A stretch of DNA of 64,000 nt from Candidatus Segetimicrobium genomatis (GCA_005882335.1 VBAP01000009.1:48303-112302), one strand, 5' to 3'. Positions 4,153-57,020 are shown, counted from the stretch's first letter. Notes: a model not told the origin generated them from the sequence alone. Made by a program: numbers and translations.

Positions 4153-4184
4153 GGGTCACAAATCACGAGTCGCGAGTCACGCCG
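4153..4184. repeat. single arm of tandem GARTCAC heptamers; same unit family as the 30034-30148 element
   Basis: The sequence GGGTCAC AAATCAC GAGTCGC GAGTCAC G lies between the response-regulator stop and the kinase start. It encodes a 13-codon uORF (ATG 4147 to TGA 4186-4188) whose TGA overlaps the kinase ATG as ATGA. Confidence 0.6.
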
Positions 4185-5924
4185 ATGATGCGCTCCATCC
4201 GCTGGAAACTCACGTCGTCCTACCTGCTGCTGGTCGTACTCGTCCTGGTGATCGTGACGGCGTATGTGACCAAGGCGCTGCACCGCTCGTATGTCAACAC
4301 TTACGCCTACGTTGTGGCCACTCAGGCGAAAGTCATCTCTTTGATGATGCGCGAGTACGCCGGCAAACGGAACCTGGTGGAACTGCAGCCGATGGTGCAG
4401 ACGTTGAAGTGGCGCCAGGAAGCCACCATCACCCTGATCGACGCCACGGGGTACTCCGCTGCGGCGATGGCAGCCGCCCCCGAGCTCGAGAAGGCTTTCG
4501 CTGGCGAAGAAGGCCAGGCCGTGCGTTTTGACCCCGCCACCAGGGAGACACGGGTCTTCGCGGCCGCCCCAATCCTCGGGCCCAACAACCGCGTCGCGGG
4601 CGTCGTGCAGGTCTCCGCGCCGGAGGCCTGGGTCTGGCGACAGCTCCGGCGGATGGCACCGGCTCTGGGGACGGCAAGCCTGCTCGGGTTGGTCGCGGCG
4701 TTCATCGTCGGGACCCGGCTGTCACGGCGGATCACGCGTCCGCTGGAAGAGCTCGGCCACGCCGCCGAGCGTATCTCCACCGGAGATTTTGCCGGCCGGG
4801 CTCCCGTGGACGAGACGGCGGAGTTGGGGCGTCTGGGGCGCACGTTCAACACGATGACAGACCGCCTCCAGCAGACCATCGGTGAAATCACAACCGAGCG
4901 CAAGAAGCTCGGGGCCATCGTCAGCGGCATGACGGACGCCGTCGTGGCGACCGACCGCCACGGACGGCTCATGCTCCTCAATCGTGCCGCCGCAGACCTG
5001 TTGCGCACCGATTCCGCGCGCGCTCTCGGCCGGCCCGCCCGCGAGATGATCCGCGGCGACCGCCTGCCGGCGATGCTGGAGGAGGCGACGGCGCACGGCC
5101 GTGTCACCGCGGAAGAGCTGCCCCCGGGTTCGGTGGGCGATCGCGTCGTGGAAGTCCACTGCGCCCCCTACCGGGACGACCGCGGCGAGGTCATCGGAGC
5201 CGTGGCAGTCCTCCGGGACGTCACCGAACTGCGTCAGAGCGAACGGCTGCGCCGTGAGCTCACCGCCAACGTGTCGCACGAGTTGCGCACGCCGCTGACG
5301 TCCATCAAAGGATTCACCGAAACCCTGCTGGATGGGGCCGTGAGGGACGAGGAGACCTGCCGCCGGTTCTTGACGATCATCAACAGCGAGGCCGACCGGC
5401 TGGTCAAGCTCGTCGACGATCTGCTTGATCTCTCGCAGTTGGAAAGCAAGCGCGCCACGCTGGATCTGCGACCGGTGGATGTGGCCGCGCTGGTCGCGTA
5501 TACCGTCGACAAGCTGCGGCCCCTCGCGCAGGAGAGCGGGCTGCTGTTGGACCAAGCGACGCCGACGGAAGTGTGGGTCACCGCCGACCGCGACCGGCTG
5601 GAGCAGGTCCTCACCAACCTGATTGACAACGCCCTCAAGTACACGCCCGCCGGCGGCCGGGTGGACGTCCGGGTGGTCCCCTCCGACGGCGAGGTGGAGA
5701 TCTCGGTCTCCGATACGGGGAAGGGGATCGGGCCGGATGATCTCCCGCACGTCTTCGAGCGTTTCTACCGCGCGGACCGATCGCGCACCCGCGGCTCCGG
5801 AGGCACGGGATTGGGGTTGGCCATTGCCAGGCATATCGTGGAAGCGCACGGCGGCCACATCCGCGTCCGTAGCCTCTTAGATGAAGGCACGACGTTCCTC
5901 TTCACCCTCCCGCAGAATGGGTAG
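4185..5924 (+). CDS. sensor histidine kinase (TM-HAMP-PAS-HisKA-HATPase), PhoR/WalK-like
   Basis: Two TM segments, HAMP, PAS, H-box ELTANVSHELRTPLTSIKGF, N box (NLIDNALKYT), G boxes DTGKGIGPD and GSGGTGLGLAI. Confidence 0.9.
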   Translation: MMRSIRWKLTSSYLLLVVLVLVIVTAYVTKALHRSYVNTYAYVVATQAKVISLMMREYAGKRNLVELQPMVQTLKWRQEATITLIDATGYSAAAMAAAPELEKAFAGEEGQAVRFDPATRETRVFAAAPILGPNNRVAGVVQVSAPEAWVWRQLRRMAPALGTASLLGLVAAFIVGTRLSRRITRPLEELGHAAERISTGDFAGRAPVDETAELGRLGRTFNTMTDRLQQTIGEITTERKKLGAIVSGMTDAVVATDRHGRLMLLNRAAADLLRTDSARALGRPAREMIRGDRLPAMLEEATAHGRVTAEELPPGSVGDRVVEVHCAPYRDDRGEVIGAVAVLRDVTELRQSERLRRELTANVSHELRTPLTSIKGFTETLLDGAVRDEETCRRFLTIINSEADRLVKLVDDLLDLSQLESKRATLDLRPVDVAALVAYTVDKLRPLAQESGLLLDQATPTEVWVTADRDRLEQVLTNLIDNALKYTPAGGRVDVRVVPSDGEVEISVSDTGKGIGPDDLPHVFERFYRADRSRTRGSGGTGLGLAIARHIVEAHGGHIRVRSLLDEGTTFLFTLPQNG

Positions 5925-6963
5925 GTCCGCCTGGCGCGCAGCACAGTTGCTCGTCCCGCTGGTCGTGGGGGCGCTCTGTGCGGGTGTTCCTGATATAAAC
6001 GCCCAGGCCGGCGCCCCAGCAGCGCAGATTGTATTTGTCTCTCCGTATCGTGGGACGCGGCAGATCTTTCTGGTGGACGCCGGCGGCGGCGGCCTGCAGC
6101 GACTCACCAGCCCACCCGGCGACAGCGAGGGACCCACCTGGTCCCCAGAGGGGCAGCGCCTGCTCTTCGTCCGAAGCAACGCTGATGATACGCAGATCTA
6201 CACCGCCAGCGAGGGTGGAAGGGAACTGCGGCGGCTCACCGCCCCACCCGGGACGCATGCGGAGGCGGCGTGGTCGCCGGATGGCCGCCGGGTCGCGTAC
6301 ATCACGCGTATGTCAGGGATCGGACGCGTCTCTCTCATGAACGCCGACGGCGGAGACAAGCGGATTCTCAGCGGTCCCCCCGCCTCCGCCTCTGCGCCTG
6401 AGTGGTCGCCGGACGGCCACCTGATCGCCTTCCTGGTACAGTCACAGGAATCGGGTGCAGAGCTGTACCTGACACGCAGTGACATGGGGGGCATGCGGAG
6501 GATTCCGACGCCGGCCACGGGAGTGATTCCCGGGGTGTCCGGATTCGTGTGGCTGCGAGATGGACAGCATATTGCCTATACCACGCGGGCCGGCCCTGCG
6601 CAGTCAGACATCTCTGTGGTCCAACTCGATGGGACTCCTCCCCGGTGGCTCGCGTTCGGGTACGCTCCGAACTGGTCTCCTGATGGGACACGGGTCGCGT
6701 TCGTCGTGGCGCACGTGGGAGGAGGACAGATCTACGTGCAGGAGGTGACAAGCGGTCGGTCCGTCCCCCTCACCGATCCGAAATACATCAGCCTGCGGCC
6801 CGTATGGTCCCCCGACGGTGCATGGATCGCCTTCCTGTCCGTTCGCGGAACTGATCTCGCGCTGTGGGTGATGCACGCGGATGGGAGCGGGCAGCGACGC
6901 CTGGCGCCTGCGGCTGGGAACCTCAGTGTCCTCCCTGTGATCTCCTGGGTTCCGTATCGGTGA
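5917..6963 (+). CDS. periplasmic TolB-like beta-propeller (PD40 repeat) protein
   Basis: Signal peptide MGRSAWRAAQLLVPLVVGALCAGVPDINAQA. Repeated P(E/T)WSPDG motifs (WSPEGQRLLF, WSPDGRRVAY, WSPDGHLIAF, WSPDGTRVAF, WSPDGAWIAF). The ATG at 5917 overlaps the kinase stop at 5922-5924. Confidence 0.7.
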   Translation: MGRSAWRAAQLLVPLVVGALCAGVPDINAQAGAPAAQIVFVSPYRGTRQIFLVDAGGGGLQRLTSPPGDSEGPTWSPEGQRLLFVRSNADDTQIYTASEGGRELRRLTAPPGTHAEAAWSPDGRRVAYITRMSGIGRVSLMNADGGDKRILSGPPASASAPEWSPDGHLIAFLVQSQESGAELYLTRSDMGGMRRIPTPATGVIPGVSGFVWLRDGQHIAYTTRAGPAQSDISVVQLDGTPPRWLAFGYAPNWSPDGTRVAFVVAHVGGGQIYVQEVTSGRSVPLTDPKYISLRPVWSPDGAWIAFLSVRGTDLALWVMHADGSGQRRLAPAAGNLSVLPVISWVPYR

Positions 6964-56840: not shown

Positions 56841-56905
56841 CGAGGACCTTCACGTCCTTTCCACTACTACGATGTGCGTCTGATTATATCATGGGGATTG
56901 TGCGA

Positions 56906-57020
56906 CCATGGAACCAGGGGACCCGGGACCAGGCAGACGAGGGATCATCGCGCAAGCAAACTCATCCTGCATGGTTCCTGATCGCTTGGTCCCTTGGTGC
57001 CCTGGTTCCTTGGTCCCTGC
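56906..57020. repeat. ladder inverted repeat, 8-mer family NNGGRACC / TGGTYCCN
   Basis: Left arm ATGGAACC AGGGGACC CGGGACC AGGCAGAC GAGGGATC, then a 25-nt spacer, then right arm ATGGTTCC TGATCGCT TGGTCCCT TGGTGCCC TGGTTCCT TGGTCCCT. Confidence 0.8.

Follow-up and report, generated by a model that had tools for sequence, protein, structure and literature searches.

Opposed arrays of degenerate 7–9-nt units at gene junctions in a 64-kb bacterial DNA segment

Relation to described repeat systems

Genomes of Xanthomonas contain arrays of the heptamer GGGAATC, with 70–75 per genome being convergent inverted pairs (Rehm et al., 2015; PMC4692102). The pairs are intergenic, lie nearer to the upstream open reading frame (ORF), are conserved in place with a variable number of units and are transcribed, and their function is not established (PMC4692102). 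Here, we describe elements of comparable layout in a 64-kb segment (64,000 nt) assigned to Candidatus Segetimicrobium genomatis (GCA_005882335.1, VBAP01000009.1:48303-112302), hereafter referred to as the window. Each element, designated as a ladder, comprises two opposed arrays (arms) of short degenerate tandem units that flank a loop, and is located at a gene junction. With several families and units of 7–9 nt, these elements are a variant of a class of repeats reported so far for Xanthomonas only. A preliminary description of the window had named the cyanobacterial short tandemly repeated repetitive (STRR) heptamers as the nearest analogue, but the convergent Xanthomonas pairs are closer (PMC4692102). 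A full-text survey of the literature on opposed octamer or heptamer arrays returned mostly organelle papers, and only PMC4692102 was directly relevant; the TAACTGA repeats reported elsewhere are direct only (PMC4679880).

The ladders share with the Xanthomonas pairs the degenerate short-unit tandem arrays, two of which stand close together in convergent orientation. Both lie mostly between genes, closer to the end of the upstream ORF and beside housekeeping genes, both persist at given junctions across related species while the unit number changes, and both have the G-rich arm on the 5′ side on each strand. Xanthomonas, however, has one G-rich heptamer family, read as G-quadruplex (G4)-forming and with four units preferred, whereas the window elements have cores of 7, 8 or 9 nt, of which at least 8–12 are unrelated to one another and most are incapable of G4 formation. 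Specifically, the AGTTGRA, CGTTGRR, GTGATTC and GGRACC units are without G3 runs and do not supply the at least four G3 tracts of a G4-capable unit. The window elements also differ in that the 9-mer families place the C-rich arm first and that the arms lie on the stop codon (median distance, 0 nt).

Repetitive extragenic palindromic (REP) sequences, bacterial interspersed mosaic elements (BIMEs) and REP doublets forming hairpins (REPINs) resemble the ladders as extragenic, hairpin-forming inverted doublets with a less conserved spacer (Bertels and Rainey, 2011; PMC3116915). They likewise occur as several families per genome that are long-lived at orthologous sites, often just past stop codons. 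The arm of a REPIN is a single imperfect palindrome of ~20–25 nt that contains an invariant 16-mer, and the copies have homologous spacers (PMC3116915), whereas the window elements have arms of non-palindromic tandem units (e.g., GTCTNCCCR and AGTTGRAN) and unique loops. A REP palindrome with an invariant 16-mer was not present in each arm of the window elements.

Cyanobacteria carry STRR heptamer arrays with small dispersed repeats (SDRs) nested in them. In common with these, the ladders are intergenic tandem arrays of the heptamer type in several families and contain tiny, strain-polymorphic hairpins (here a 33-nt mini-hairpin). Intergenic tandem heptamers in a few genome-wide families are matched in the window by recurring short-unit families; the host is not a cyanobacterium. 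STRRs differ in being mostly single direct arrays, with few inverted pairs in Nostoc (PMC4692102), and the opposed layout falls outside their definition; SDR elements are also mentioned in PMC3116915. With foldback transposons and MITEs (miniature inverted-repeat transposable elements), the ladders share inverted arms of short tandem repeats (foldback), small size, a non-coding nature and dispersal, but they lack a target-site duplication, internal sequence in common and any known autonomous partner. Foldback elements are found in eukaryotes and are far larger. Intrinsic terminators are similar as GC-rich stem-loops shortly past the stop codon, whereas the window elements have 25–45 nt in each arm and 8–90 nt in the loop, and a U-tract is usually missing.

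Detection and distribution of the opposed arrays

Arrays were detected by column conservation, in which the invariant columns were counted across 3–6 consecutive units for each position and period. Earlier detectors (lag-p identity of at least 72% and exact 5-mer ladders) were too strict for units with two or three free positions, and most loci were missed. A complementary array within 200 nt with an ungapped score of at least 12 was taken as a partner. The window contained 18 arrays with periods of 7–9 nt, compared to a mean of 0.15 and a maximum of 2 in 100 dinucleotide-preserving shuffles, and an inverted partner was present for 14 of the 18 and for none in every shuffle. The unit periodicity claimed in the preliminary description therefore holds against shuffled sequence, and the common architecture of the junctions was borne out by array and partner detection. 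When tested period by period, the window had one array with a period of 7, nine with a period of 8 and eight with a period of 9. With the same detector, no arrays with periods of 4–5 or 10–14 were found in the window, and the only array with a period of 6 was unpaired. The arrays consist of 3–6 units, most of which are 8–9 nt rather than 7 nt long. Tandem Repeats Finder (TRF) and an inverted-repeat finder also recovered the arrays and opposed partners in the window. Only eight such arms were found in 1.4 Mb of unrelated bacterial loci obtained from a SecA search (L005–L084).

The opposed-array elements of the window are real and robust, and valid at most of the loci listed previously. Among 13 loci that had been described as identical in design, ten have clear opposed arrays (12897, 17161, 20933, 30034, 37854, 40670, 43274, 49800, 54301, and 56906), and two are weak, namely 21543 (2–3 units per arm) and 49453 (four units against a single unit). 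The remaining locus, 4153, is a direct 7-mer array for which no complementary arm was detected, and is not an opposed pair. Two loci were absent from the earlier list, i.e., 3338–3392 and a degenerate element at 41450–41533.

The arms share one design in which a family-specific unit of 7–9 nt has a fixed core of 5–7 nt and two or three free positions. A metagenome scan with three GTCTNCCCR units returned 120 stretches, and the full design was found at about 25 independent loci in soil contigs of 63–68% G+C. Nearly all loci of the GTCT family read (GTCTNCCCR)n–loop–(YGGGNAGAC)n, and three 9-mer elements have the reverse arm order. Arms and polarity are common to 26 elements of the GTCTNCCCR family, but their loops are 8–63 nt long and unrelated except between orthologues; the loops begin with GTC and end with GAC, which are decayed units. 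With the general detector, 124 partnered arms were found in 475 kb of related contigs, where the window cores GGGAACNN, AGTTGRAN, GARTCAC, and GGRACC recur. The elements constitute genome-wide families with locus-specific loops and are not copies of one master sequence. The recurrence of cores at unlinked loci, first noticed within the window, was confirmed and extends to dozens of unlinked junctions in the metagenome contigs; this recurrence in related contigs supports the earlier view of dispersed families rather than purely local slippage.

The 5′ arm was G-rich in 29, C-rich in 4 and neutral in 5 of 38 non-GTCT elements of the 7-/8-mer families (related contigs L086–L197 and the window). 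The 9-mer families mostly show the opposite polarity, with the C-rich arm first. Because the elements are palindromic, the polarity holds on both strands.

The anatomy of the 9-mer family was analyzed using 26 elements with 146 consensus units. Unit quality drops from the outer to the inner units (43/52, 39/52, 32/51, 26/48, and 5/28). The base at position 5 was the same in neighbouring units in 18 of 84 cases compared to 28 expected (P ≈ 0.01), which is rarer than chance. An ABAB arrangement of two-unit super-units was not supported, as lag-2 similarity was not significant, and only the avoidance of identical neighbours holds. At the free positions 5 and 9, complementarity between the arms did not exceed that of shuffled unit order (P = 0.84 in the best register and 0.48 in register 0). 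The preliminary description had proposed that unmatched variable positions punctuate the helices; this stands statistically in the 9-mer family, but not for the example cited, the element at 40670, whose helix was said to be broken by internal loops. Its 27-nt arms are instead nearly perfect, being 96% complementary in a shifted register, and form a 27-bp uninterrupted helix (z −8). At the ends of 22 copies, no consistent direct repeat (target-site duplication) was found, and only a one-base extension of the palindrome (A…T) was seen.

Two further interpretations of the units were rejected. Adenine-specific variation of the type produced by diversity-generating retroelements was considered since the free positions are the only adenines in GTCTACCCA, but other families have invariant adenines. 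A role of the arms as translation stops in all frames would hold for the TGA-containing 7-/8-mers but not for the GTCTNCCCR, GGGAACNN or GGRACC families.

The position of the elements was surveyed in 473 kb of non-redundant contigs, in which 41 elements lie in co-directional junctions. The median distance from the nearer arm to the upstream stop was 0 nt (interquartile range, −4 to 6), while that from the other arm to the next start was 29 nt, and the stop was closer than the next start in 35 of the 41 elements. One arm begins on the upstream gene's stop codon. Gene ends have taken up some of the arms, and the repeat-encoded parts include the tails of RecO, cytidine deaminase, and a response regulator as well as 13 N-terminal residues of Era. 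The contacts reported earlier with the gltX ATG, the prs, gdh and secA stops, the macro-domain C-terminus and the era N-terminus were all confirmed.

The same design was also present in other phyla. In Acidobacteriota metagenome-assembled genomes (MAGs), it was found at L061:8360-8480 (8-mer GGGAAACA) and L068:22575-22702 (7-mer CAGTGRT), the latter beginning within the TGA that ends a 750-aa ORF. A Saccharibacteria MAG has a 7-mer element (L045:4677-4830) along with numerous long direct arrays of heptamers. In viral contigs, a scan for the 9-mer pattern yielded only coding repeats of the Gly-X-Y type.

Inheritance, turnover and possible origin

The window has a G+C content of 65% and consists almost only of housekeeping genes on the minus strand, with one tRNA-Gln. 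The closest SecA sequences among species-representative genomes (71–72% identity) are from two hot-spring MAGs, one of which is Candidatus Fervidifonticultor quartus of the phylum Ca. Sysuimicrobiota. Judging from sequence comparison, the window host is a Sysuimicrobiota-like soil bacterium and not a cyanobacterium. Parts of the window are matched at 94–99.9% identity by contigs of several independent soil metagenome assemblies, which indicates that the window sequence is not an assembly artefact. For comparison of junctions, we used two strain contigs (L001 and L003), contigs with 98.5% (L129), 93.8% (L107) and 82.7% (L185) identity, and two family-level relatives (L005 and L006).

A comparison of orthologous junctions, which the preliminary description had suggested, showed that the elements are kept in the closer relatives and absent from junctions of L005 and L006. 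The prs–gltX junction is 6 nt long in L005 and filled by an element in the window, no element follows secA (secA–lnt) in L005 and L006, and the junction between the pyruvate phosphate dikinase (PPDK) and HD-phosphohydrolase (HD) genes is about 10 nt long and without an element in L006. Since these junctions are only 6–10 nt long in L005/L006, the whole 100–150 nt was gained in the lineage of the window. Elements persist at orthologous junctions with 75–98% identity, where the outer arms are maintained, the unit number changes by ±1, and the loops cannot be aligned. In the L116/L137, L130/L139 and L147/L150 pairs, they persist down to a flank protein identity of 60–79%; a class-by-class identity table of the orthologue pairs is distorted by end gaps in the flanks and was used only qualitatively. 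In particular, the outer arms of L116/L137 have 52 of 54 nt kept, including the free positions, at about 80% flank identity.

Strain-level indels within the arrays measure exactly 7, 8, 9, 18, and 18 nt, showing change by gain or loss of whole units, i.e., replication slippage. A GGGGTCR ladder is present or absent between strains that are 99.6% identical, with 27 nt of local sequence in one and the 113-nt ladder in the other, and the site already carried a unit-like heptamer. Ladder families were also swapped for one another. Specifically, L107 (94% identical overall) has a different ladder, GGGACTTG…/…CCAGTCCC, at 3338–3392, with 120 nt against 76 nt, and the replacement spans the intergenic region in full, together with the response-regulator gene's Shine-Dalgarno stretch; a swap was likewise found at one L124 vs L182 junction. 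Another L124/L182 junction shows concerted differences in every unit of both arms (GGGACT/AGTCCC vs GGGATT/AATCCC). The elements are thus inherited across species-level divergence and are sometimes lost or replaced outright. As a separate observation, a 10-mer direct array (GACGCAACAA) right after a stop codon at L121:4311 differs by exactly two units from that in L176 between strains that are 99.5% identical, showing that unpaired arrays with units outside 7–9 nt undergo slippage as well.

We tentatively favour the reading that the elements are “ladder palindromes”, namely non-coding hairpin-forming intergenic repeats at gene 3′ ends in a niche like that of REP sequences and BIMEs. The transcript would contain a long imperfect stem-loop that begins where translation ends. 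By analogy with REP hairpins in 3′ flanks, this stem-loop may protect the end of the upstream mRNA or act as a partial barrier to read-through. At tight junctions, the folded stem could hold the stop and the next start side by side, and such a juxtaposition would explain how insertions inside former operons are tolerated. The elements would have spread as selfish-to-domesticated DNA through a mechanism that leaves no target-site duplication, for which template switching at microhomology and a hairpin-specific single-strand transposase are candidates, and they would not be locus-specific riboregulators. Among the roles suggested earlier, an RNA-stability or processing hairpin and a protein-binding array are possible.

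Several points weigh against this reading. The RNA hairpin role is one that we only infer, and the equal folding of both strands is neutral for a DNA-level palindrome and gives no positive support for an RNA role. Depletion from divergent-gene intervals was not significant (elements in 3/43 vs 46/331, P = 0.33). No transposase or REP-associated tyrosine transposase (RAYT) was found with Pfam among ~28 flanking ORFs, all of which are housekeeping genes, and RAYT was not searched for genome-wide. The unique loops together with the lack of target-site duplication do not fit any known copy mechanism. Moreover, the outer-arm conservation of individual copies between species suggests selection at the level of the host, so that the elements may not be purely selfish DNA.

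If the ladder palindrome reading is true, the elements would represent a second general solution, beside REP/REPIN, through which small hairpin DNA settles in the 3′ flanks of genes in bacteria, with at least Sysuimicrobiota-like soil bacteria, Acidobacteriota, Saccharibacteria, and Xanthomonas as known carriers. Their regularities have no current model: the strict 7–9-nt unit, the arms on the stop codon, the conserved cores with unpaired free positions, the avoidance of identical neighbours, and the polarity rule. The elements lengthen proteins (RecO, Cdd, Era, and a response regulator), break up former operon junctions, and are hotspots of indels between strains, with consequences for MAG assembly and gene calling in soil phyla that are poorly known.

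Another explanation is that the elements are locus-specific cis-regulatory RNAs (attenuators, terminators, or processing sites) selected in the sense transcript, which we consider unlikely. Their location directly past stop codons, the very stable predicted stems, the conservation of outer arms among orthologues, and the U-runs behind 12897 and 49453 are consistent with it. The elements fold strongly (z −6 to −8), but they do so on both strands; the fold energies summed over the window are −691 kcal/mol in sense and −679 kcal/mol in antisense with 47 vs 44 G·U pairs, and 19 oriented elements had 63 vs 59 G·U pairs (P = 0.23), giving no strand asymmetry as a sign of RNA selection. This equality and the lack of inter-arm covariation at the free positions argue against a tuned riboregulator, and the elements have no match in Rfam. 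As to terminators, a consensus scan of the window between 36 and 56 kb flagged no ladder, and U-runs were seen by eye after 12897 and 49453 only. For several elements, the distance to the next start is only 1–12 nt, which leaves no room for a promoter, so that these cannot be complete terminators. The earlier suggestion of canonical intrinsic terminators is at odds with this lack of promoter room, with the lack of a U-tract in most elements, and with the canonical terminator located ~40 nt past the 49453 element.

Arrays bound by a protein that recognises the core of the unit on either DNA or RNA, with the opposed arrays giving a symmetric nucleoprotein complex, are an improbable explanation. 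It would account for cores that are conserved where the pairing of free positions is not, for the unit length confined to 7–9 nt across unrelated cores, and for the best preservation of the outer units. However, the at least a dozen unrelated cores in one lineage would need as many specificities, and the arms are complementary in every family, including the concerted GGGACT/AGTCCC vs GGGATT/AATCCC switch, which points to pairing.

It is also conceivable, though improbable, that the arrays were not transposed but written in place by repeat-adding repair of a break or stalled fork beside the stop codon. Both ends would be extended by short-unit synthesis, through template switching into family members or by a telomerase-like templated polymerase, and then joined with filler, giving two opposed arrays in which the newly made strands point 5′→3′ to a unique centre. 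Such a process would explain why the loops are unique and a target-site duplication is missing, and also the common 7–9-nt step of unrelated cores, the polarity bias (29/38), and the replacement of 27 nt by a 113-nt ladder at a site with a unit-like heptamer. If true, it would mean that repeat families propagate across phyla independently of a transposase.

A neutral by-product of polymerase slippage and hairpin-templated correction, arising independently at each junction without dispersal or function, is quite improbable. Indels of whole units between strains agree with it, as does a proposed link between heptamer abundance and the polymerase footprint, as far as the statement quoted in PMC4692102 goes. 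Cores that recur at dozens of unlinked junctions, arms that stay intact where the loops are beyond alignment, and the tight tie to stop codons speak against it, and identical neighbours are rarer than chance, which is the opposite of fresh slippage.

An origin as copies of a foldback-type transposon or classical MITE, moved by a DDE transposase, is very improbable. The terminal inverted arms, the dispersed families, the presence/absence and replacement polymorphisms, and the intrusion into gene ends would suit such elements, and a MITE-like nature had been among the earlier guesses. A classical MITE is contradicted by the lack of target-site duplication in the 22 copies inspected and by internal sequences that are not homologous between copies; in addition, no transposase gene was seen in the window or beside the copies examined. 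Least probable of all are G-quadruplex-forming repeats as proposed for the GGGNATC heptamers of Xanthomonas and Nostoc: GGG runs occur in the GGGAACNN, GGGNAGAC, GGGGTCR, and GGGACTN families, the 12897 arm has four G3 tracts, and the 5′ arm is G-rich in 29 of 38 7-/8-mer elements as in the convergent Xanthomonas pairs, but 12897 is the only window element with at least four G3 tracts, the AGTTGRAN, CGTTGRRN, GTGATTN, GGRACC, and GTCTAC-type families are incapable of canonical G4 formation, and the complementary arm would compete through duplex formation.

Individual elements and neighbouring features

Table 1 Ladders and related arrays of the window with their units and gene context.
Positions	Strand	Element	Units (left … right)	Gene context and remarks
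3338..3392	.	Ladder, 8-mers	Weak left arm GGGACCAAGCCAG; right arm CCTGGTTC CTTGGTAC GCTGGTAA CCTGGTAC	Between DUF2231 stop and response-regulator start; TRF 3360–3392, period 8
4094..4180	+	Two direct 7-mer arrays, not an opposed pair	4094–4123: GGAAACC GGAGGCG GGAAACG GGAAGCG; 4153–4180: GGGTCAC AAATCAC GAGTCGC GAGTCAC	TRF; no inverted partner found; arrays mutually unrelated; 4094–4123 codes 19-aa response-regulator tail (Trans_reg_C domain stops at residue 228/247)
12899..13049	.	9-mer ladder	(GTCTNCCCR)×5, 63-nt loop, (YGGGNAGAC)×4	Right arm ends at glutamate dehydrogenase (gdh; Pfam) stop; next start 205 nt off
17152..17250	.	9-mer ladder	GGCGATCAC GGCGAACAT GGGGAAACT … GTTCGCTAC GTTCGCCTC GTTCGCCAT	M23 peptidase stop 5 nt away; S41 peptidase start 27 nt away
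20935..21017	.	8-mer ladder	CGTTGAAA CGTTGGAG CATTGAGA CGTTGGGG … CAACGTCC GGACGTTT CAACG	Right arm within macro-domain gene 3′ end; left arm 12 nt from surE start
21539..21644	.	Weak 7-mer inverted repeat (21539–21605)	GTGACCAG…/…GGTCACT GACTACT GGTCACT	Between HEAT-repeat gene stop and macro-domain gene start
30035..30152	.	7-mer ladder	GTGATTA GTGATTC GTAAGTC GTGATTC … GAGTCAC GAATCAC GAGTCAC GAATCAC	Fills prs–gltX junction: overlaps prs stop, ends 1 nt from gltX ATG
37855..37950	.	9-mer ladder, family of 12897	3 units, 26-nt loop, 4–5 units	Right arm abuts secA stop; lnt start about 50 nt off
40673..40772	.	8-mer ladder	AGTTGGAC AGTTGAAA AGTTGGAG AGTTGGAA … CTCCAACT CTTCAACT GTCCAACT TTTCAACT	10 nt past stop of 217-aa gene; TATAAT-like box and secA start downstream
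41450..41533	.	Degenerate 8-mer ladder	GCGGTCGG GCAGTCGC GCTGTCC … GCGACCGC CTGACCGC	
43275..43388	.	9-mer ladder	GTCTACCAG GTCTTCAAC GTCTACTGG GTCTTCCGG GTCTACAGA … GTAGAC-type units	Fills PPDK stop–HD-phosphohydrolase start junction, 6 nt from each
49452..49513	.	Asymmetric 8-mer element	CGTTGGAA CGTTGAAG CGTTGGAG CGTTGAAC vs single unit TTTCAACG; inverted-repeat score only 8	Abuts stop of 87-aa ORF; canonical terminator ~40 nt beyond, 49415–49395 (−)
49805..49959	.	8-mer ladder	GGGAACAG GGAAACGC GGGAACAT … GCGTTCCC CCGTTTCC CCGTTCCC	Nested 33-nt mini-hairpin 49921–49953; right arm and mini-hairpin code last ~25 residues of 34-aa RecO tail
54298..54504	.	8-mer ladder, family of 49805	Left arm GGCAACAG GGGAACCC GGGAACGG GGGAACGC; right side GCGTTCCC [mini-hairpin 54439–54473] GTTCCCGC GATCCCGC CTTCCCGT	Left arm codes Era residues SRVPPFPGSPVAG; right arm codes cytidine deaminase (cdd) tail (gene calls of L001)
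56904..57019	.	8-mer ladder	GGAACCAG GGGACCCG GGACCAGG … CTTGGTCC CTTGGTGC CCTGGTTC CTTGGTCC	3 nt past ABC-ATPase stop, 64 nt ahead of CNNM/CorC start

The individual elements of Table 1 were compared with their orthologues. The direct arrays at 4094..4180 are kept in L107 with 4 substitutions, while the 17152..17250 element is identical in L129 and the 56904..57019 element is identical in L001. The 12899..13049 element folds with −93 kcal/mol (z −7.9, both strands), and its orthologues in L107 and L129 have 4 units where the window has 5. The more distant L185 (83% identical) keeps the ladder after secA (37855..37950), in which the left arm has 4 units and the loop is conserved; its counterpart of the 40673..40772 element comprises 3 units with a shorter loop, and it carries a clearer GTCGCG/CGCGAC 8-mer ladder at the junction of 41450..41533. 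The weak 7-mer repeat near the stop of the HEAT-repeat gene is accompanied by a perfect direct 16-mer repeat (CGCCACAACGCGACCG, 2.2 copies, 21610-21644), which is unrelated to it and has no inverted partner.

The 33-nt mini-hairpin, GC[TC]CCGCCCCGAGCC…GGCGTGGGG, lies between GTTCCC units of two ladders (49921-49953 and 54439-54473), and an extra copy is present in the strain contig L003, inserted at window position 49905. Its stems vary by compensatory changes (GCCGAC/GTCGGC, GCCGGC/GCCGGC, and GCCCGC/GCGGGC). By analogy, it looks like a tiny mobile hairpin that targets GTTCCC arrays, reminiscent of the cyanobacterial SDR elements. In the neighbouring recO gene, an in-frame 21-nt indel (CGGTACGCTGCCGGGGATCCA) was found at window position 50048 relative to L001 and L003.

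Other repeats of the window are not ladders. A long hairpin with 34-nt arms of 76% complementarity directly follows the tRNA-Gln gene (24903-24975), and a separate perfect 17-nt inverted repeat (ATCCCCGGACCGGCCGC…) is located at 26073-26117; both have the look of ordinary terminators. Two C-rich stretches with periods of 3 and 9 (CCGCC-type; 25800-25860 and 26351-26391) lie among small uncertain ORFs at 25.7–26.8 kb and may code for Pro/Gly-rich peptides on the minus strand. Finally, one intergenic region holds two copies of a conventional REP-like palindromic repeat (CCTCACCCTTGCGTCCCTCTCCCCGCGGGGAGAGGGAAATAAGGTTGGGG; 59969-60018 and 60074-60123), with related copies near 14398-14430 and 61300-61345, and a 59-nt relative differs by presence or absence between the contigs L091 and L203.

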